Of a DNA stretch of 25,687 bases, positions 9,281 to 25,176 are shown in pieces (the stretch's first letter is position 1; every line of letters begins with the position of its first letter). The position numbers were made by a program, and so were the translations under genes. The stretch is from positions 1 to 25,687 of the forward strand of contig JALUCS010000124.1 in NCBI GenBank assembly GCA_027050205.1. The letters run 5' to 3'. Source of the stretch: a candidate division WOR-3 bacterium (lineage in GTDB: Bacteria > Hydrothermota > Hydrothermia > LBFQ01). The notes under the pieces are model-generated. The model made no database searches. It saw nothing but the letters and a program-made list of their open reading frames with translations, and was not told the DNA's origin.

Positions 9281-11368
9281 CTAACGATACCCCTCCATCA
9301 TGTGCTTCAACCTCTCAACGTTCAACCTCGCCCTCGTGTAGGTTGAATCGTACCTCAGTATCTCCCGCCATATCTCGTACGCCCTGCGATACTCCCCCCT
9401 CTGATAGGCCTCCAGCCCCATCAGGTACATCCTGTCCAGAACCTCACGGGAGACCCTCTTCCTGCTCTTCTTCTGCTGGATACGTTTGAGCAGATCCTTC
9501 GCCTCCGGCATTTGGGCGAGACTGACCGCCTCCTTCAACCGGGCTATGGCCATCAGGGTGTCCCCCTTCTCAAGGTGGGAGACGGCCTCGGTGTAGAGCA
9601 TACGGGCTCTGGCCTTCTTCCTCCTGACCAGCTTACGCTTCAGGGCCTTCGCTCTACGGTTGTTCGGATCTTCCCTCAGGGCTATCTTCAGCAACCTCTC
9701 TGCCTCGTTGTACCTGCCGGAGGCTATAAGGGAGGTAGCCCGTAGGAGAATCTCATTGACGTACTCCCTGCGCATAACGTTGAGGTGCTTTATGAACCTA
9801 TTCAGTACTCTGCTGTTGCGTTTCTTCTGGATCCTCTTGAGGACGCCTATCGCCCTACGGTACTGCCTCCTCTCAATCAGGGATACGACCTCTCTGGCAC
9901 CGGGGAAGTTCAGGCGACGTATCTCTAACGTGTATATGGAGTCCCGCAACCTGCGTAGCCTCGGGAGGGAGTCCTCCCAGTTGAGGGCGCTCGCCAGACT
10001 GTCCATGCCGTTCAGGTATATCAGGGCCGCAGCGTAATCCTGCCTCTTCATAGATGCCTTCAGGCTATCCCTCAGGGACCTGTACCTTCCCCGGTTTATC
10101 CTCTCCATAAGGGCCTTCACCCTCTCCTCGTAGGACGTGTCGGGCGCCCATATGAGGGCGAGGTTGGCGAAATGTTCAGCATCGTCGTAATCTCCGGCTC
10201 CGGCACTCTGCTCCGCCTGTTTTATGAAGTATTCCGTCATACGCTCCTCCGTCCGGGCCTCCTGAAGGATAACGGCCAGCGTGGTGTCCGAGAGGACCTC
10301 AACCGTCCCGTCCTCCGGATAGTACCCCTTCGCGGTTATCTTGAGGGAATACTTTCCCTCCTTAACCTTTTCAAACCTGAGGCTTCCTATCTCGTCCGTT
10401 CTGCCGACCTTCCCACCGAGTATAACCGTCGCACCGCTTATGGGCTTTCCCTCCGTGCTTACCACCTTCACCCGTACGGTGTGCCTGTACCTGTACAGGG
10501 GCAGGGTGTAGGATATGGAGAACCATACGGTAGCGTCGGGCCTGAGCAGGACATCCCAGTAATCCGGCCACCTGTTGGAGTACCTGACATCCGGGTAGTT
10601 GCCCAGAGTAAGGAGGTGGTCGTAGGCGAGGGATACCGTCAGGCCCTCCCTTACGTAAGCCAGTCCCACCTTGACCCAGGAGGGTCCCCCAACCTCAACG
10701 AAGCCCTCACCGAGGAGCCTCAAATTCGGCAGTACGGAGAAGGTAGCGAGGTTGGAGACGTTTACGTCAAGGTCCGCCCCACCCATGTAGAGGTTGAGGT
10801 CGTAGGACCACCTCTTACCGCTCAGGGAAAGTATCCCGCCGAAGGCGAAGTGATCCGGTTCGTTGAAAACCCTAACAAGTCCCCTCGTAAATCTGTACCT
10901 CTCCCTGACGTTCCTTATCGGTGTGGTTGAACCCGTATCGCCCACGAGGGGCCCGTAATAACCCATCAGGCCTATACCTCCGAGTACGCCGGATAGTCTG
11001 AACCTGTAGGCTGACTTTAGCGTAAAGGTGGGGTTTCCGAAACCGTAGGCGTAGAACATCTCCCCCGTCTCGTTCAGGTTGAGCTGGTCGTACCTGAGCG
11101 GGGCAGATAAGCCTACCTCAAGGAACCTGTAGGATAGGCCCACGCCGAGGTAGAGGTCGGCGAAGAAGGTGTTGAAGGTCCTCGTGGGGGGCAGGGGATG
11201 GTCCACGGGAAGGTAGGAGTACAGCCCGGTGCCTCTCTCGTGGTCGTACCCAAGGCGTACGGAGGGGACGGTCAGAAGGAGGGTCGGTCTCTCGTAGAAG
11301 AGGGCGGACTGCGTCCTCTCATAGCCCGAAGTTCCAAAGATGCTTACGGAACCCACGGTAAAGAGCAT
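9281..11368 (-). CDS. Multidomain protein: N-terminal barrel-like region, PEGA/carboxypeptidase-regulatory-like domain, C-terminal TPRs
   Basis: Beta-rich N-half; GKPISGATV..TDEIG..GKYSLKITAKGY motif; helical TPR-like C-half (GLEAYQRGEYRRAYEIWREIL). Confidence 0.7.
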   Translation of the reverse strand: MLFTVGSVSIFGTSGYERTQSALFYERPTLLLTVPSVRLGYDHERGTGLYSYLPVDHPLPPTRTFNTFFADLYLGVGLSYRFLEVGLSAPLRYDQLNLNETGEMFYAYGFGNPTFTLKSAYRFRLSGVLGGIGLMGYYGPLVGDTGSTTPIRNVRERYRFTRGLVRVFNEPDHFAFGGILSLSGKRWSYDLNLYMGGADLDVNVSNLATFSVLPNLRLLGEGFVEVGGPSWVKVGLAYVREGLTVSLAYDHLLTLGNYPDVRYSNRWPDYWDVLLRPDATVWFSISYTLPLYRYRHTVRVKVVSTEGKPISGATVILGGKVGRTDEIGSLRFEKVKEGKYSLKITAKGYYPEDGTVEVLSDTTLAVILQEARTEERMTEYFIKQAEQSAGAGDYDDAEHFANLALIWAPDTSYEERVKALMERINRGRYRSLRDSLKASMKRQDYAAALIYLNGMDSLASALNWEDSLPRLRRLRDSIYTLEIRRLNFPGAREVVSLIERRQYRRAIGVLKRIQKKRNSRVLNRFIKHLNVMRREYVNEILLRATSLIASGRYNEAERLLKIALREDPNNRRAKALKRKLVRRKKARARMLYTEAVSHLEKGDTLMAIARLKEAVSLAQMPEAKDLLKRIQQKKSRKRVSREVLDRMYLMGLEAYQRGEYRRAYEIWREILRYDSTYTRARLNVERLKHMMEGYR

Positions 11369-11442: not shown

Positions 11443-11991
11443 GTGGCTTTAACTTTCCTCATCTCTCTGTCTGCTTCCTTCAAAGAGGGCTACGTTCAGT
11501 ACCACACGGTACTGAAGGCCTTCGGTACCGTCCCCGACCCCGTCAGTGGAAGGAGCGAGAATCTCAAGGTGAATGCGGGCTTCAGGGATGACGGCAGGTT
11601 CTACCTGAAGTTCAGGGTCCCCGTCCGCTCCTTCAGGTCCGGCAACACGACCAGAGACAGGGAGGTGGCCAAGATCCTGGGCTATCCGAAGCACAGGTAC
11701 ATACACTTCTCCCTCCTTGCGTATCCGAAGGACGCCATAGACAGGGTCCTGAACTCCGACAGCGGCACGGTGAAGGTGCGGGCCAGACTCAAGGTTAAGG
11801 GAAAGGCGAAGACCTATACGTGGAAGGTGAAGTACCGCTGGCTCTCGGAGAACCTCCTTGAGCTGAAGACCTCCCGGCACGTCAAGTTCACCGACTTTGG
11901 CATAAAGCCGCCCACCCTCTTCGGCTTCGTAAAGAGGGCGCCTGACGATGTGGTCGTGTCGGGAAGGATCGTTCTGGAGGTAAGAAGATGA
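11443..11991 (+). CDS. YceI-like lipid/polyisoprenoid-binding protein
   Basis: VPVRSFRSGNTTRD, YPKHRYIHF, LKVKGK, KFTDFGIKPP motifs typical of the YceI fold. Confidence 0.8.
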   Translation: MALTFLISLSASFKEGYVQYHTVLKAFGTVPDPVSGRSENLKVNAGFRDDGRFYLKFRVPVRSFRSGNTTRDREVAKILGYPKHRYIHFSLLAYPKDAIDRVLNSDSGTVKVRARLKVKGKAKTYTWKVKYRWLSENLLELKTSRHVKFTDFGIKPPTLFGFVKRAPDDVVVSGRIVLEVRR

Positions 11992-12581
11992 CGTGGTTGA
12001 TGCTTTTGTCCCTCTATGCGGGCGATGGGTTGGAGGTATGCTGTGATCAGGGGGTGAAAATCGCCCTCGCCGACGAGGAGAGTGAAGAGGCCGAGGAACT
12101 AATGCAGGAGGAGGCTTCCACCGGCGAGGAGATGGTGGAAGTTGAGGACGAAGGATCGGAGGAGGAGGAGAATGAGGAACACGAGTCCTACACCACCTTC
12201 ACCCTCCATCGCTGGATGGGGTACGGTATAATCCTCGGAAGCCTCGCCAACGTCGGTCTCGGTCTGTACGAACTCAACCTATACCAGAACGGTAAAGTTC
12301 CACCCGACCCCCTAAGGATAACGCACAGGGCAATAGGCTACACCGTCTTCTCCCTCTCCCTCGTCCAGTCCACCATCGGCACGTACAACGCCCTGAAACT
12401 CTGGGGTGAGGAGGAAGGGTCTTTCCGCCGTCTCGTACACGGCGTCCTGGCGTGGTCCGCCACCGGGGCCTACCTCTACGCCGGGTACCTCGGCTACCGG
12501 GGGTACTACGAGCAGCACCGGAACTGGATGTTGGTCGCAACGGGCCTTGCCACGCTGACGGGTCTGTGGATAATCTTCTGA
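11988..12581 (+). CDS. Membrane protein with acidic linker and 4 TM helices each preceded by His (cytochrome b-like)
   Basis: LHRWMGY, THRAIGY, VHGVLAW and QHRNWM each open a hydrophobic helix; ATGA overlap with the upstream gene. Confidence 0.6.
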   Translation: MTWLMLLSLYAGDGLEVCCDQGVKIALADEESEEAEELMQEEASTGEEMVEVEDEGSEEEENEEHESYTTFTLHRWMGYGIILGSLANVGLGLYELNLYQNGKVPPDPLRITHRAIGYTVFSLSLVQSTIGTYNALKLWGEEEGSFRRLVHGVLAWSATGAYLYAGYLGYRGYYEQHRNWMLVATGLATLTGLWIIF

Positions 12582-12592
12582 AGGGGGGAGGT

Positions 12593-13060
12593 ATGAGGTG
12601 GTTCCTTATTCTGATTCCGGCACTCCTCCTGATCGGGTGTGAGGCCGGGGAGTTTGAGGGGGAGGAGGAGTACGGCCCCAACCACGCCCTGATACGGGAG
12701 GCTGGCCTGAAGTTCAAGGCCGACTGTCTCTCCTGCCACGGGGGTGGAGGGTTCGGTGAAGAGGAGGGGCCAACGTTCAGGTACGCGGGGACAGTTTGGG
12801 ACAGACCCAACGGAGACCCCCTGCCCGGTGTGAAGGTCATCCTTAAGGCCGTAGGTGCCGGAGACTCCCTCGTCCTGACAACGGACACGTACGGCAACCT
12901 CAAGACCTCCTCCTCTCTGAGTACGGCTAAATACTCCGCGAGGGTGGAATGTCCCGGCGGGAAGGTACTGGCTATGAGGCTCCATTCCTACTACGGCGGT
13001 TGCAACGACTGCCACAGGCCCGGAGGGAAGGCCGGTAGGGTCCTATCCTGCAACAGGTGA
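12593..13060 (+). CDS. Diheme cytochrome c lipoprotein
   Basis: SD GGAGGT, MRWFLILIPALLLIGC lipobox, CLSCH and CNDCH flanking a beta-sandwich (YAGTVW..TTDTYGN). Confidence 0.8.
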   Translation: MRWFLILIPALLLIGCEAGEFEGEEEYGPNHALIREAGLKFKADCLSCHGGGGFGEEEGPTFRYAGTVWDRPNGDPLPGVKVILKAVGAGDSLVLTTDTYGNLKTSSSLSTAKYSARVECPGGKVLAMRLHSYYGGCNDCHRPGGKAGRVLSCNR

Positions 13061-13554
13061 GTATGAACGCTGCGTATCTGCACCTTTTAACCAACCACAT
13101 ACCCATCTTTGGGTTTCTCTTTGGGGCAGGCCTCCTGGCCTACGGTATGGTCAGGGGGAATACGGAGCTTAAGCGGGTGGCCGCCTTCGTCCTCCTCCTC
13201 GCCGCCCTTGGCACGGTGGTGGCCTACTTCAGCGGGCATAACGCCGAGGAGATAGTTGAACACCTTCCGGGGGTCCTTGAGGAAGCCATAGATAAGCACG
13301 AAGAGGCCGCCAAGTTTCCCCTCTACCTCTCCATCATAACCGGTCTACTCTCCGCCGTCTATCTCTTCCTCCCCTTCCGGTTCGGGGACTGGGCGCTCCT
13401 GCTCCTCTCCGTCCTCTCCCTCGGCGGTGGAATCTACGCCGCAAAGACCGGAGGCGCCATAAGACACGCCGCGGAGCAGGGCCTAACTACCTTCCCCTCC
13501 GGTGAGGGTGAGGGGACGTATCCGGAGAAAGAAGAGGAGGAAGATGATGACTGA
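13057..13554 (+). CDS. DUF2231-like 4-TM membrane protein
   Basis: HLLTNHIPI, SGHNAEE, HEEAA, GGAIRH pattern; acidic tail. Start at GTG 13057 or ATG 13063. Confidence 0.65.
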   Translation: MSMNAAYLHLLTNHIPIFGFLFGAGLLAYGMVRGNTELKRVAAFVLLLAALGTVVAYFSGHNAEEIVEHLPGVLEEAIDKHEEAAKFPLYLSIITGLLSAVYLFLPFRFGDWALLLLSVLSLGGGIYAAKTGGAIRHAAEQGLTTFPSGEGEGTYPEKEEEEDDD

Positions 13555-14752
13555 CCCCTTCGTTTTGAGCGTTGGGGGGGCCGCCCTGACGTTCATGGTG
13601 GCCGAGGCGGTCAGGTACCGCCTGCATTTGAGGAGGCTCAAACGCATCCCCAACCGCATACACGTAAACGGCTCACGGGGTAAGTCCTCCGTCACCCGCC
13701 TGATCGGGGCGGCCCTGCGGGGGGATGGCCGGAAAGTGGTCGTGAAGACGACCGGGACGACCCCGCGCTTCATATACCCGGACGGCAGGGAGGTCCCCAT
13801 ATTCCGCCCCGGAAAGCCCAACATAATAGAGCAGTTGAAGGTCGTAAAGAGGGCGGTTGAGGTCGGGGCGGATACCCTCGTTGTGGAGTGTATGGCCATA
13901 ACACCGGACTACATCCGCATCCTTGAGGAGAAGATAATCCGAAGCACCGTAGGGGTCATAACCAACGTGAGGGAGGACCACCTTGACGTCATGGGGCCGA
14001 CCCTCTACGACGTCGCCCGGAACCTCGCCCTCTCCCTCCCCAAGAACGGCATAGCCTTCACGGCCGAGGACAGGTGGTTCTGGGTGTTTGAGGAGGAGGC
14101 GAAGAAGAGGAACACGCGGATCATCAAGGTCTCCGCAGAGGACGTCAGGGACGAGGAGATGTTGGGCTTCCCCTACATAGAGCATAAGGAGAACGTGGCC
14201 ATAGCCCTCGCAGTGGCCAGACACTTCGGCGTACCGCGGGAGGTTGCCCTCCAGAGGATGTACAAGGTGAATCCGGACCCCGGTGTCCTGACGGAGACCA
14301 TCGTTGAGAGGGATGGCAAGCGGATATACCTCTTCAACGCCTTCGCCGCCAACGACCCCGACTCAACCGTGATAATATGGGACATGGTGAACCGCAGGAG
14401 GAAGGGGAAGAGGCTCGTCGTCCTCACCCTGCGAAAGGACAGGCCGCAGAGGACGGAGAGCTTCGCCAGGATAGTGGGTACCCGCATAGAGGCCGACCAC
14501 TACTTCGTCGTCGGCACCTTCACCTCCTACATCGTCAAGGCCCTCAAGGGGGCAGGCGTCCCCGAAGAGCGGATAACGGCCGTTGAGCATACCAACCCCG
14601 TCCCGGACCCGGAGGCGGAGGAGGTGGCCAGGAAGGTCGTTGAGGAGATATGGAAGGTGGCCGACAGGGAGAACGTCCTCGTCACGATGGGCAACATCGT
14701 TGGTATAGGCGGCAAAATCGTGGAAGTACTTGAAAAGGAGGCGAAAGTATGA
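13547..14752 (+). CDS. pgsB: Poly-gamma-glutamate synthase PgsB/CapB
   Basis: RIHVNGSRGKSSVTRLI, KTTGT, NIIEQ, VECMA, ITNVREDHLDVMGPT, NAFAANDPDST, GNIVG. SD GAGGAGG before ATG 13544/13547. Confidence 0.95.
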   Translation: MTDPFVLSVGGAALTFMVAEAVRYRLHLRRLKRIPNRIHVNGSRGKSSVTRLIGAALRGDGRKVVVKTTGTTPRFIYPDGREVPIFRPGKPNIIEQLKVVKRAVEVGADTLVVECMAITPDYIRILEEKIIRSTVGVITNVREDHLDVMGPTLYDVARNLALSLPKNGIAFTAEDRWFWVFEEEAKKRNTRIIKVSAEDVRDEEMLGFPYIEHKENVAIALAVARHFGVPREVALQRMYKVNPDPGVLTETIVERDGKRIYLFNAFAANDPDSTVIIWDMVNRRRKGKRLVVLTLRKDRPQRTESFARIVGTRIEADHYFVVGTFTSYIVKALKGAGVPEERITAVEHTNPVPDPEAEEVARKVVEEIWKVADRENVLVTMGNIVGIGGKIVEVLEKEAKV

Positions 14753-15201
14753 TACTTACGGAGGCTGTAGCCCTCGGTTTGGTGTTTTCCCTCTACTCTT
14801 CGGAGGTCCTCGGCTTCGTCGCCGGGGGTTTGGTGGTGCCGGGGTACTTCGTCGTAATATCCTCCCGGCCCCTGATGCTCATCGCCACCCTGTTGGCGGC
14901 CTTTCTGGCGTACCTGTTTTTGAGGATCATATCCTCCCAGATGCTCCTCTACGGCCGCAGGAGGCTCCTCGTCGCCGTCCTCCTCGGCTTTATCTTCTCC
15001 TACCTCAGCAAGTGGCTCGCCGTCGCCTACCCCTCCCCCATCCTCTTCCAGCTTCAGGCCTTCGGTTTCGTGATCCCCGGACTCCTCGCCTACTGGATGG
15101 ACAAGCAGGGCGTCCTCCCCACCCTCGGAATGCTCTTCGTTAATGTGGCCGTCGTGAGGCTCCTGCTCATACTCCTCCATGGCGGGGAGGTGGTGATATG
15201 A
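14749..15201 (+). CDS. pgsC: Poly-gamma-glutamate biosynthesis protein PgsC/CapC
   Basis: AGGLVVPGY, LYGRRR, GFVIPGLLAYWMDKQG motifs; directly follows pgsB. Confidence 0.95.
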   Translation: MILTEAVALGLVFSLYSSEVLGFVAGGLVVPGYFVVISSRPLMLIATLLAAFLAYLFLRIISSQMLLYGRRRLLVAVLLGFIFSYLSKWLAVAYPSPILFQLQAFGFVIPGLLAYWMDKQGVLPTLGMLFVNVAVVRLLLILLHGGEVVI

Positions 15202-16328
15202 GGATCTTCTTCAAGCACCGCTTAAACACGGCCGAGATGGTCTTCCTCGGGGTGGTGGGGGTGGTGGTGATAGCCCTCTCCGCCCTCGCCAGGACAACGG
15301 CCAAAGCACCCCTATACGACGTAAAACTATCTGCCGCAAGGCGCACGCTGAAGGCGTTTGAGATTCTGAAAAAAGAGAGGCTCCGCAGGGACATACCCAT
15401 AGACTCCGTGAACGACCCCGCCCTTAGCGGGCTTATAGGCTACAAGGACTCCCCCATAACTACGACCACCGGCGACCTACTGGCGAAGCAGATGACGATA
15501 AACCCCAACTGGGCGGCCCTGGTGGTGGAACTGTTGAGGGAGGCGAAGGTTAAGAGGGGGGACTACGTCGCCGTCCATATGACCGGCTCCTTCCCCGCCC
15601 TGAACGTCGCCACCCTGATAGCTATTGAGACCTACGGGGCTATCCCGGTCTGGGTCTCCTCCGCCGGCTCCTCCAGCTGGGGGGCCAACATCCCCGACTT
15701 CACCTGGCCGGATATGGAAAAGGTCCTGCGGGACAGGGGGATGATCAAAGGGGCCTCCCTACTCGTCTCCCTCGGAGGGAACAACGACGTAGGGGCGGGG
15801 CTGCCGGAGGAGGGCCGGAGGATGCTGCGGGAGGCCATAAGGCGGAACGGGTACCGTCTCCTTGAGGTCCTACCCCTGCAGAGGTCCGTAGATGCCAAGT
15901 ACTCCACCCTAAAAGGGGCGGCGAAGGGCAGGATAAAGGCCTTCATAAACGTCGGCGGAGGTGTGGCCAGCCTCGGATCCCACGAGGTGGGGGAGCTGCT
16001 CAAACCCGGAATAAACTGGCCCCGCACCTACACCGACCTATCCCTCTCGGACTACCCGGTTGAGGGGCTGGTGGCCAAATTCCTTAAGGAGGGCGTGCCG
16101 GTGATACACCTGCTACACGTCAGGACCCTCGCGAAGAGGTACGGACTCCCCCTCGTAGTGGCGGCCATGCCGGAGGTGGGGGAGGGGAGGCTCTTCTTTG
16201 AGGAGAGGTACGTCCTGTGGGTTCAGGCCCTCCTGTTGGTTGGCTACCTCGTCCTGGTCTTTCTGGTCGTTAACGGATACCTCGGAAGGTTCTTTGGAAA
16301 TCCGAGAAAGGAGGAAGAGACGGTATGA
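15198..16328 (+). CDS. pgsW: Poly-gamma-glutamate system protein (PgsW-type)
   Basis: DPALSGLIG..SPITTTTGDLLAK, TGSFPALN, SSSWGAN, SLGG, FINVGG motifs; N- and C-terminal TM; follows pgsC. Confidence 0.85.
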   Translation: MRIFFKHRLNTAEMVFLGVVGVVVIALSALARTTAKAPLYDVKLSAARRTLKAFEILKKERLRRDIPIDSVNDPALSGLIGYKDSPITTTTGDLLAKQMTINPNWAALVVELLREAKVKRGDYVAVHMTGSFPALNVATLIAIETYGAIPVWVSSAGSSSWGANIPDFTWPDMEKVLRDRGMIKGASLLVSLGGNNDVGAGLPEEGRRMLREAIRRNGYRLLEVLPLQRSVDAKYSTLKGAAKGRIKAFINVGGGVASLGSHEVGELLKPGINWPRTYTDLSLSDYPVEGLVAKFLKEGVPVIHLLHVRTLAKRYGLPLVVAAMPEVGEGRLFFEERYVLWVQALLLVGYLVLVFLVVNGYLGRFFGNPRKEEETV

Positions 16329-18175
16329 AGAGGTTTGCGTTTCTCATCTCCGCTTTAATTCCCGCCTCCCTGATGGGGGCGTGGGTTGATATGACGGATC
16401 TGGCCGAAGGGCCGAGGGCCACGGTCGGAAAGAAGAGGTACCTCCAGCTCTCACCTAACACACCCGTAAGGATCAAAGTAAAAAAGAGCATGAGCGTCAA
16501 GTGGAAGCTCAAATCGGACAAAGACGGCAAACTCTGGTACGTAAACCGCAAGAACGGGAAGCGGAGGGAGTTCCCCTTCAAGGCGGGTAGGAGCGAGATA
16601 AGGATGCACCTAACGGCCGGCACCTACGACTTCTACGCCTCGCCGGAGGCCATAGCCCGTATCTACAGGTACATACGCCGCCGCTGGAAACCCATCCAGC
16701 CGGAGGGGGGAGGGTACCCCGTCGTCCTCTTGGTAGGTGAGAACCGATACACCTACTACAGGGCGGACAGAGAGATCGTAGTTAAGGTCAAGGGACCGAC
16801 GAAGCTCTACCTGTTCTTTAGGGCCTTTATGAAGGACAGGCGCAAGGTCAAGGCCAAACTCAAGGTGTACGAGGGAAGTAAGCTGCTGAAGTCGGCCATC
16901 AGGACCCTCAAACCTTCAAGGAGGGCGGTGTTCTTTACGGGGAAGGACAGCTTACCCGCCTCCGTACCCCTCAAACTAACCCTGAAGGTTCCGGAGGGGT
17001 TACACCGGTACAGGGTGGTCGTCTCCGGCGCCCCTGGGGCCATAAAGCCCTACGTGCATAAGAAGAGATCCAAGAGAGGCGACAGGAACATCTTCCGCTT
17101 CACGGGTACGGATATGGGTATGGCCGGGTACGGCCCCATGCTCGCCTCTCTCAACGCCGTGAACTACAAGGAGGCGAAGGTGGAGAAGAGGAGAAAGAAG
17201 ACCAAGAAACGTCGTAGGCGTCGGAGAGCCTTCAAGCACCATTATGTGCGCATCGTCCCATCCGTAGCCTATCGCTCCTCCGACAACGTCTATCACTACA
17301 GCCAGCCCCAGATAGACACCTTCTACCTAGGCCTCAAGCCCTACAGGTACCCCGGAGTTGAGGGGATAGGGGACGGGATCTGGAGGCTCGGCGTATCCCT
17401 CACCTACCTTTACCGTTTCAAGAGGAGGGTCTTCGTCGGCCCGTCCCTCTACTACTCCCTCTACAGGTACGTCCAGAACCAGCAGCTCAACCGCAGTCTT
17501 TACAGGGTATCCCTTGAGGGCAGGTACTACGGCCTTCGGGCGTCTGTCTCCTACCTGAACATGCCCTTTTACGGCGTAAGGCCCACGTACACGGGGGTTC
17601 CGAGGACATACGAACTGCTCTCCTTCGCCTATACGAGGACGGGCCTGTCCGTCTCCTACATCTTCAAGTTCCTGACCGTAAGGGGTACGTACGGCTTCGG
17701 AAACTACGATTTCAACCCAACGTTTGACGTCTACGACGCCCGATTTCAGAGGTCGGGGATGGGTTTGACCTTCAGGTACTCCGTCCTCTCCGTAAAAGGG
17801 GACATTCTCTTCGGCAAGGTGGAGGCGACGAACCTCCCCGCCGGCACTCCCAAGGACTGGTCCCACGACTACACCACCTTCAAGGCGGGCCTACGCCTCC
17901 TCTTCCCCTACGCATCCCCCTACGTATCCTACAGGCACACAGTCCGAAACTACACCACCACCAACACAGCCGACTCCCACTACGGCAGGGAGGACAAGGA
18001 GAGCGACCTCACTCTGGGAATATCCGGAGACCTCCCTTACGTCAGGCCCTTCCTCTCCTACCGCATAAGAAGCCGCAGCACGACCGCCCCTGTGCCGAAG
18101 GTGGACGTCTTCAAGGACTACAGGGAGGCGATATTTACGGCCGGGGTAAGGGTGCCGGTGAAGTTCAAGTTCTAA
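16325..18175 (+). CDS. Secreted basic protein with C-terminal predicted outer-membrane beta-barrel
   Basis: Signal peptide MKRFAFLISALIPASLMGA, K/R-rich beta domains, polybasic linker, Tyr-rich alternating strands, terminal VKFKF; ATGA overlap with pgsW. Confidence 0.75.
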   Translation: MKRFAFLISALIPASLMGAWVDMTDLAEGPRATVGKKRYLQLSPNTPVRIKVKKSMSVKWKLKSDKDGKLWYVNRKNGKRREFPFKAGRSEIRMHLTAGTYDFYASPEAIARIYRYIRRRWKPIQPEGGGYPVVLLVGENRYTYYRADREIVVKVKGPTKLYLFFRAFMKDRRKVKAKLKVYEGSKLLKSAIRTLKPSRRAVFFTGKDSLPASVPLKLTLKVPEGLHRYRVVVSGAPGAIKPYVHKKRSKRGDRNIFRFTGTDMGMAGYGPMLASLNAVNYKEAKVEKRRKKTKKRRRRRRAFKHHYVRIVPSVAYRSSDNVYHYSQPQIDTFYLGLKPYRYPGVEGIGDGIWRLGVSLTYLYRFKRRVFVGPSLYYSLYRYVQNQQLNRSLYRVSLEGRYYGLRASVSYLNMPFYGVRPTYTGVPRTYELLSFAYTRTGLSVSYIFKFLTVRGTYGFGNYDFNPTFDVYDARFQRSGMGLTFRYSVLSVKGDILFGKVEATNLPAGTPKDWSHDYTTFKAGLRLLFPYASPYVSYRHTVRNYTTTNTADSHYGREDKESDLTLGISGDLPYVRPFLSYRIRSRSTTAPVPKVDVFKDYREAIFTAGVRVPVKFKF

Positions 18176-23928: not shown

Positions 23929-25176
23929 ATGCGTAGATTTCTTGGTATAGGGATTTTATCCGTCCTGATAACCGGAGGGGCTATCCTACTGGCCCAGGGA
24001 GAGCCGAAACCCCAGTCTGCCAGCGAGTCTCTGGAGTCGGAGATGCCCCAACCTCAACCCCAGGAGACCCCACCGGAAACTCCCCCACCGCAGGGGGAAG
24101 AGGCCCAACCCGCCCAGGGAGGAGAGCAACAGGCCGAGGGGAAGAAGGGTGGTCTGCCGGAGTTCAAGGCGGGTCCTTACACCTACGAGCTACCCCCCAA
24201 GAGCCTTGACAAGTACTATCCCCCCATAGCCAAGAGGGCGAAGGTCTATCCGGCCTATATGGATACCCTTGGCCGTCGCTTCTACGACCTCATCGTAGAC
24301 CTCGGTGCCATAAATATCCATAAAGAGGACGCCGAAGTTTCCTACTTCCTGTTCAAGGATTATTACGAGTTCATCGCCGACCTCGTACCCGAATGGAAAG
24401 ATCGCTTCCTCTTAGACGACGTTAAGGAGCTGGGTAAGGAGCTGGGCTTCATAAAGGACTCCACGGATACCACGAAGGCGGAGAAGGCCGAAGGTAAGGG
24501 GAAGCCAAAACCCATAGGGGAATCCCCGAAGATAAGCGAAAGGGCGAAGGCCCTCATCAAGAAGATAGAGTACTCCTGCAGGGCCTGCCATATAACGGAG
24601 ATACCGAGGGTGTATGCCCGGTACTACTGGCACACGCGGGACCTACGGATGAACATGGCTACCTTCATGGTACGGGACCCCATCACCCGCCGGAAGATGA
24701 GGTACAGGATATTCAAGAGGGAGCTTCAGAGGGACCTCTACACCATCCTCCGCAGCATAGACAAAGGCTCCCGTATGCAGCTCCGTAAGAGCGTCCAGAG
24801 GTTCGTGAAGAGGTTCAACTACAACCAGAGCCTCTGCACCAAATGCCACGAGACGGATCCCTATCTCTTTACCACCCCTACCATAGCCGAGTTGGTGAGC
24901 GATTTGGACAAGGAGGCCCACAAGAGGGTACCCAGCAAGAAGATCCTCCGTCAGGTCTTGTCCTCCCTCTACGTGGAGAACTGCAAGGCCTGCCACAGGG
25001 TGCATCTGCCGACCACCTACGTACAGAGGTGGTGGTACGGTGAGTTTGACGAGGTTCCGGAGGTTCCGGCGGCTAAGAGCGAGAGTCAGAAGCCAACCGC
25101 GAGTGAAACCCCAGCCCAACCCGATACCACGGCCCAACCCCAACCCGAAGAGCAGGGAGGAGGGCAAACCAAGTAG
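23929..25176 (+). CDS. Exported triheme cytochrome c with P/Q/E-rich termini
   Basis: Signal peptide, CRACH, CTKCH, CKACH; TATACT 8 nt before the ATG. Confidence 0.85.
   Translation: MRRFLGIGILSVLITGGAILLAQGEPKPQSASESLESEMPQPQPQETPPETPPPQGEEAQPAQGGEQQAEGKKGGLPEFKAGPYTYELPPKSLDKYYPPIAKRAKVYPAYMDTLGRRFYDLIVDLGAINIHKEDAEVSYFLFKDYYEFIADLVPEWKDRFLLDDVKELGKELGFIKDSTDTTKAEKAEGKGKPKPIGESPKISERAKALIKKIEYSCRACHITEIPRVYARYYWHTRDLRMNMATFMVRDPITRRKMRYRIFKRELQRDLYTILRSIDKGSRMQLRKSVQRFVKRFNYNQSLCTKCHETDPYLFTTPTIAELVSDLDKEAHKRVPSKKILRQVLSSLYVENCKACHRVHLPTTYVQRWWYGEFDEVPEVPAAKSESQKPTASETPAQPDTTAQPQPEEQGGGQTK

Follow-up and report, generated by a model that had tools for sequence, protein, structure and literature searches.

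How does poly-gamma-glutamate (gamma-PGA) leave a cell when the genes for its synthase are followed by a gene for a predicted outer-membrane barrel? The question is raised by a four-gene operon on contig JALUCS010000124.1 of a candidate division WOR-3 bacterium (assembly GCA_027050205.1), all 25,687 nucleotides of which were analysed here and are referred to as the window. A sequence-only reading had recognised pgsB, pgsC and pgsW in this operon, together with a fourth gene proposed to encode a periplasmic guide and an outer-membrane pore. Our analysis makes it narrowly probable that the operon encodes a PgsBCW synthase, a basic periplasmic guide and an outer-membrane exit pore for gamma-PGA. 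The four genes and the predicted parts of the fourth product are listed below, with protein lengths in amino acids (aa).

13547-14752, + strand: pgsB, poly-gamma-glutamate synthase of the Mur-ligase family, 401 aa (TIGR04012, PF08245)
14749-15201, + strand: pgsC, membrane subunit, 150 aa (TIGR04011, PF14102)
15198-16328, + strand: pgsW, 376 aa (TIGR04332, predicted structure)
16325-18175, + strand: gene without a name for a 616-aa protein, a periplasmic domain fused to an outer-membrane barrel (from homologues and predicted structure)
16325-16381, + strand: probable Sec signal peptide, residues 1-19 (by eye, from the hydrophobic N-terminus and the same mature start in homologues)
16382-17059, + strand: tandem all-beta basic domain, residues 20-245 (model, predicted local distance difference test, pLDDT, above 90), the putative periplasmic guide
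17078-17230, + strand: low-confidence linker (residues 252-279), then polybasic helix (279-302), lineage-specific (model, charge survey)
17240-18172, + strand: predicted 14-stranded outer-membrane beta-barrel with terminal Phe (model, fold match)

The proposed order of pgsB, pgsC, pgsW and a fourth gene was borne out by four co-directional open reading frames (ORFs) spanning 13547-18175 on the + strand, the first three of which encode members of families above the NCBIfam cut-offs. PgsB scored 408 bits against TIGR04012 (curated cut-off 222.7), PgsC 103.7 bits against TIGR04011 (curated cut-off 96.45), and the product of the gene after pgsC 314 bits (cut-off 100) against TIGR04332, the family that carries the NCBI name pgsW. 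The translational coupling claimed for the fourth gene was likewise found, as a 4-base ATGA start/stop overlap with pgsW that recurs at every operon joint. With PgsB and PgsC as members by curated cut-off and their genes adjacent, the locus resembles the Bacillus PgsBCA(E)/CapBCA(D)E systems; CapB and CapC are mandatory in the CapsuleFinder model, according to the accessible part of its description (PMC5542703). It differs from the Bacillus system in having no linked CapA or CapD, as the sequence-only reading had also noted (16 ORFs of the window scanned for both families; the short CapE was not searched for), and in having instead PgsW, with a different predicted fold. Beyond this, the locus encodes an outer-membrane barrel along with a periplasmic domain, neither of which belongs to the poly-gamma-glutamate model in that part of the same source. 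The host genome has a single CapA-family gene, on contig C16 and unlinked to the pgs operon, and no CapD/GGT match was found in this genome, which is 93.5% complete; a CapA-family gene occurs in 13 of 27 pgsW-positive genomes versus 20 of 34 pgsW-negative ones.

PgsW was modelled with a pLDDT of 95.9 as an alpha/beta domain between membrane helices at residues 11-30 and 340-358, and 17 columns are invariant across 67 sequences. A fold search returned only generic Rossmann-like matches, with Z up to 7.5, and no CapA-type folds were among the matches listed. The modelled fold and the fold search together rule out PgsW as a PgsA homologue, and the earlier statement that PgsW replaces PgsA therefore speaks of gene position only.

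The fourth protein has no Pfam or NCBIfam match and 71 homologues, fused or split. Its tandem all-beta domain, hereafter the N-domain, is a separate gene of about 270-310 aa in most lineages and single copy in its own genome; Pfam matches of this N-terminal part were scattered and weak. As had been proposed, an N-terminal signal-like segment is present, judged by eye, and a Lys/Arg-rich linker was located as the KRRKKTKKRRRRRR stretch from residue 288, with 13 Lys or Arg in 14 residues. The barrel ends in Phe, as claimed, and contains YRSSDNVY, which lies where strand 1 finishes. An AlphaFold2 model of the mature protein, based on a 149-sequence alignment (pLDDT 92.6, predicted template-modelling score 0.61), predicts with high confidence the barrel that the sequence-only reading had expected, with 14 strands, of which strands 5-6 are long (19-21 residues), and near-invariant polar residues near the strand ends. 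In keeping with an outer-membrane location, the predicted protein combines a signal segment, an even number of amphipathic strands and a C-terminal aromatic residue, and BamA-type genes are present in its own genome.

The PDB matches listed for the fourth protein in a fold search are barrels, and matches in a viral library were low in TM-score. The closest folds to the barrel are CymA (Z 24.0, root-mean-square deviation 3.4 over 274 aligned residues) and OmpG (Z 21.4), followed by FadL- and BamG-type barrels at Z 15-18 and, lower, PgaA at 14.7; a wider search again gave CymA as top match (Z 18.9), with PelB at 13.8 and BcsC at 13.5. CymA and OmpG share the 14-stranded fold with the window barrel, but identity is 7-10% without a significant profile match, and both are hydrophilic channels that stand alone, outside synthase operons; the peptide protamine passes CymA, as stated in the accessible part of PMC8049027. 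Sequence searches of the PDB gave nothing significant for the full fourth protein, three family profiles, PgsB or PgsC. Among the 73 barrel members, weak matches were obtained to SlipAM (PF04575; two members, best E 5.4e-4), BBP2 (PF10082; four members) and EpsL (TIGR03014, an outer-membrane family of polysaccharide biosynthesis; four members, best E 3.4e-7). The window protein matches none of these, and kinship of the barrel with BBP2, EpsL or SlipAM would be, from these profile matches, a distant relation at most.

The analogy to AlgE and PgaA drawn in the sequence-only reading stands as a likeness in working and not as membership. As with PgaA, BcsC, PelB, AlgK/AlgE and Wzp, one operon in the window encodes an inner-membrane synthase, a periplasmic scaffold and a barrel, the last two of which may be fused or split. 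In the accessible part of PMC9603273, lumen charge is matched to the polymer in synthase-dependent exopolysaccharide exporters, and the PgaA barrel has 16 strands with tetratricopeptide repeats (TPRs) and that of Wzp 18. The window barrel has 14 strands, its N-terminal domains are all-beta, no TPR was found in 81 N-terminal-part members or 73 barrel members, its cargo would be a polypeptide, and its fold similarity to PgaA, PelB and BcsC reaches Z values of only 13.5-14.7. Membership in the AlgE/PgaA-type exporters is excluded by the strand number and the all-beta scaffold.

Charge is unevenly distributed over the protein and its relatives. The N-terminal part of the window protein carries a net +40 over 231 residues, and a 230-residue stretch that basic occurs in one of 1157 crudely called proteins of its own genome; across the family this part is moderately basic (median net +0.048 per residue, positive in 70 of 81). 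A strong poly-Arg/Lys linker occurs in only some of 19 fused forms checked. Inward-facing barrel residues sum to a net +16 in the window protein and to a median of +5 in the family (positive in 59 of 73) by a strand-parity estimate made without coordinates or control barrels, and the barrel lumen is accordingly predicted from the model to be modestly basic.

Linkage of the barrel to pgs genes was surveyed by genome-wide searches of 272 genomes of the phylum with the barrel profile and TIGR04332. The barrel was found in 137 genomes and pgsW in 130, with both in 127, the barrel alone in 10, pgsW alone in three and neither in 132. Among the genomes with both, 118 of 127 have the barrel less than 4 kb downstream of pgsW in the same orientation, and 125 of the 130 genomes with pgsB have the barrel. 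The profile was made from pgs-linked barrels and so is biased to them, yet the genome-wide search found few unlinked relatives; the genomes include kin and are not independent, yet whole families lack both genes and others have both. Among the ten barrel-only genomes, four were inspected: L142 and L158 carry parts of the usual cluster at a contig edge, L157 pairs an N-domain with a divergent barrel, and L155 has a weak barrel that stands alone. Two further barrel-only genomes gave weak matches, and two of the three pgsW-only genomes end at a contig edge. The earlier expectation that homologues adjoin pgs loci agrees with these counts, and the same pattern was seen in 80 loci from GTDB. As separate observations, pgsW directly follows gyrB in G023 and G034 (L050, L051, L156), with pgsB and a pair of N-domain and divergent barrel on other contigs, and pgsB-pgsC stand alone in G061 (L164:5769-7381), a 100%-complete genome without a pgsW or barrel match.

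No monoderm lineage label occurs among the GTDB loci surveyed, which are the best 80 of 185 pgsW loci and many of which carry no lineage label; the labels, as given, include Eisenbacteria, Krumholzibacteria, Fibrobacter, Bacteroidota, Latescibacterota, Marinimicrobia, Gemmatimonadetes, TA06, Spirochaetales, Myxococcales and Pseudomonadota. The N-domain is present in 72 of these loci, the barrel in 59, both in 58 and neither in seven, one of which lies at a contig edge. The N-domain and barrel profiles include the surveyed loci, and earlier profiles built without them gave the same pattern. All six N-domain-only genomes tested have a barrel elsewhere in the genome, and only 11 matches came from searching a word index with the barrel profile. 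Beyond the phylum, N-domain and barrel usually have a gene each, with an LVIVD lipoprotein gene coming next; overall, the N-domain is fused to the barrel (window) or encoded separately (most), and in a further variant the barrel comes with one extra repeat. A barrel-bearing gene sits between pgsW and pgsB in four genomes (L032, L033, L037, L043). A single ORF covers both PgsW and the N-domain in six of the 80 loci (L060, L068, L089, L094, L107, L134); its product, which has a signal-like segment where the two parts meet, is possibly a polyprotein that is cleaved. Four Flavobacteriia loci (L085, L091, L095, L099) join pgsBCW and the N-domain to genes for a lipoprotein of 234 aa and a barrel-like protein of 284 aa.

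These results suggest a route for the polymer. PgsB would ligate glutamate in the cytoplasm, the chain would cross the inner membrane at PgsC and PgsW, and PgsW would hand it to the basic beta-domains, one or more copies of which would guide the polyanion across the periplasm. The polymer would then thread the 14-stranded barrel and leave through the outer membrane, where, in most lineages, the LVIVD propeller lipoprotein may sit on the barrel as a cap and retain or process the polymer; no such gene lies beside the window form. A bridging role is proposed for the N-domain because it is fused to PgsW at one end and to the barrel at the other, an arrangement of reading frames that suggests a trans-periplasmic link. 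The pore role of the barrel is proposed because of its fold class, its operon coupling and the charge bias of its lumen, and since barrel relatives travel with pgs genes across several two-membrane phyla, the barrel is the likely polymer exit. The weak EpsL matches and the gamma-PGA hydrolase gene of one locus (L118) fit this route.

Several observations weigh against this route. The barrel family as a whole is net neutral (median +0.006 per residue, positive in 38 of 73), and this median rules out a polybasic barrel as a family trait; the "polybasic outer-membrane barrel" of the sequence-only reading holds for the window lineage only. Conserved barrel residues near strand ends and loops suit docking as well as passage. 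Neither gene of the module of N-domain and barrel was found in six of the 80 GTDB loci having at least 4 kb downstream (labelled Spirochaetales, Myxococcales, Pseudomonadota and Eisenbacteria), and searches of these genomes, whose completeness is not given, found no barrel in four and no N-domain in five. The module is also missing from the 14.7 kb shown around a pgsBCW cluster of Cetobacterium (Fusobacteriota) and from beside pgsBCW in G128, a 99% complete genome that is the third pgsW-only one of the phylum survey, and the barrel stands without an adjacent N-domain gene in L150 and L151. The 284-aa gene of the four Flavobacteriia loci is unmatched by the barrel profile and possibly a replacement, and in split operons of the Eisenbacteria type, the genes for barrel and LVIVD lipoprotein remain together. 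In addition, E. coli cells given Bacillus PgsBCAE but no extra pore release PGA into the supernatant, according to the accessible part of PMC7490850. The module is thus not a general diderm trait, as some diderm pgsBCW clusters are without it, and from the module-less loci together with the E. coli result it follows that a dedicated barrel is no universal need. Fusobacterium nucleatum is the Gram-negative gamma-PGA producer on record, according to a title cited in PMC4497714.

The alternative that survives best turns on the LVIVD lipoprotein. A gene for this propeller lies no more than 0.8 kb downstream of the barrel in 44 of 59 loci, with six more at contig edges and nine without it; fn3 and FGE-like domains are often part of it, and a lipobox pattern was seen at 15 of 33 crudely called starts. 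Most lineages thus add to the exit-route gene set of the sequence-only reading a component that it did not include and that the window lacks. Fused forms in the class of the window protein have no adjacent LVIVD gene; five unlinked LVIVD matches occur in its own genome. The close downstream position would also fit a barrel that acts as a surface platform, docking the lipoprotein in the way that BamG docks BamH, gripping the polymer by its extracellular loops, or both, and so keeping the capsule on the cell. Wzi holds capsule on the cell surface. BamG, FadL and PorV are likewise 14-stranded barrels (Z 15-18, with BamG-type chains at 17-18), and the long strands 5-6 recall the "pillar" of extended strands on which BamG docks a surface lipoprotein in the accessible part of PMC12611786. 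That no CapD anchor enzyme was found in the host genome and the pore-free release of PGA from E. coli noted above also speak for a platform. We nevertheless consider it unlikely, as CymA and OmpG outscore FadL and BamG, strand 1 of the split-form barrels follows closely on the signal peptide, with no long N-terminal tail such as FadL and BamG have, the fused forms in the window protein's class have no LVIVD neighbour, and the N-domain fusions to PgsW and to the barrel hint at a link across the periplasm.

The tight linkage to a lipoprotein gene, the 14 strands, the two weak SlipAM matches and an Atlas clustering with SlipAM (0.85, below the Atlas lead threshold) could alternatively point to a translocon of the Slam/type XI secretion system kind that moves the neighbouring lipoprotein, or else the N-domain protein, out to the cell surface while the polymer exits elsewhere. 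This is improbable given that the barrel members have no TPR match, that the window protein itself has no SlipAM domain match, that the barrel is kept with pgs genes without an adjacent lipoprotein in nine of 59 loci and in the window, and that it tracks pgsW almost one to one.

The product of PgsBCW might itself be different, either a polyamide of another kind or chains of glutamyl residues attached to an acylated carrier in the envelope, with the module handling that product. Genes for an HGSNAT-like acyltransferase accompany 26 of 86 loci, C25 peptidases lie nearby, the invariant motifs of PgsW are enzyme-like without a close fold match, and gamma-PGA is the product predicted from gene families. 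With PgsB and PgsC above equivalog cut-offs and a gamma-PGA hydrolase present in one locus (L118:9746-10384), we give this only a slight chance. Still slighter is the chance of a channel working inward, by which PGA fragments or glutamate would be taken back up, for, although the best structural match, CymA, takes up cyclodextrins and the lumen is predicted to be modestly basic, the barrel gene is coupled to the synthase operon (inside it in four genomes) and a hydrolase gene occurs in one locus only. As a separate observation on these neighbours, an extended cluster in L029:669-5074, L090:737-5228, L093:1178-4735 and L118 holds an LVIVD lipoprotein with or without fn3/FGE-like domains, a C25 peptidase with a type IX-like sorting domain, and an HGSNAT-like acyltransferase.

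Returning to the guide and exit pore, the joint between N-domain and barrel has a further peculiarity in some relatives. In five genomes of two families, at 75-98% DNA identity, the frame is broken at the same run of nine A (A9) between the two (L042, L044, L046, L047, L142), and past this run the barrel is encoded in an open frame of 283-301 codons that has no signal peptide; the structure downstream is weak. In the relative L039 the run has ten A and is in frame, and L048 is in frame via an extra upstream base. From this pattern of bases, the A9 site is a candidate for programmed transcriptional slippage or a -1 frameshift, which would yield short and fused products.

Elsewhere in the window, positions 11443-13554 (+) hold YceI-like, cytochrome b561-like, two-CXXCH lipoprotein and membrane-protein genes, the last with a stop codon that overlaps the pgsB start; part of this block lies upstream in L035 and not in L038. 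A 695-aa protein at 9281-11368 (-) has an unannotated N-terminal half followed by a CarboxypepD_reg domain and TPRs. At the contig end, a pentapeptide-repeat gene (3-1160, -) lies in a stretch of 40% GC versus 55-62% elsewhere and was probably acquired. A 255-aa protein with terminal Phe and no family match (1258-2025, +) is possibly a small barrel, and 23929-25176 (+) encodes a secreted multiheme cytochrome c-like protein.

Finally, two protein families without names, the N-domain and the barrel, are defined here. In the literature searched, which excluded most subscription journals, we found no paper that deals with PgsW or with an exporter of gamma-PGA in the outer membrane, nor any description of how this polymer crosses that membrane. 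A broader reading, to which we give somewhat less than an even chance, is a trans-envelope machine for a non-ribosomal polypeptide, composed of PgsBCW, a multi-copy basic bridge and a new 14-stranded pore family that is often capped by LVIVD, with a bridge-to-pore ratio set by slippage in some lineages. If true, synthase-dependent export would extend from polysaccharides to a polypeptide by way of a smaller barrel class, and the module may aid engineered gamma-PGA production in Gram-negative hosts. With about half of the 272 genomes of the phylum involved, the results imply that a polyglutamate coat would be common in uncultured lineages related to the Fibrobacteres-Chlorobi-Bacteroidetes (FCB) group.

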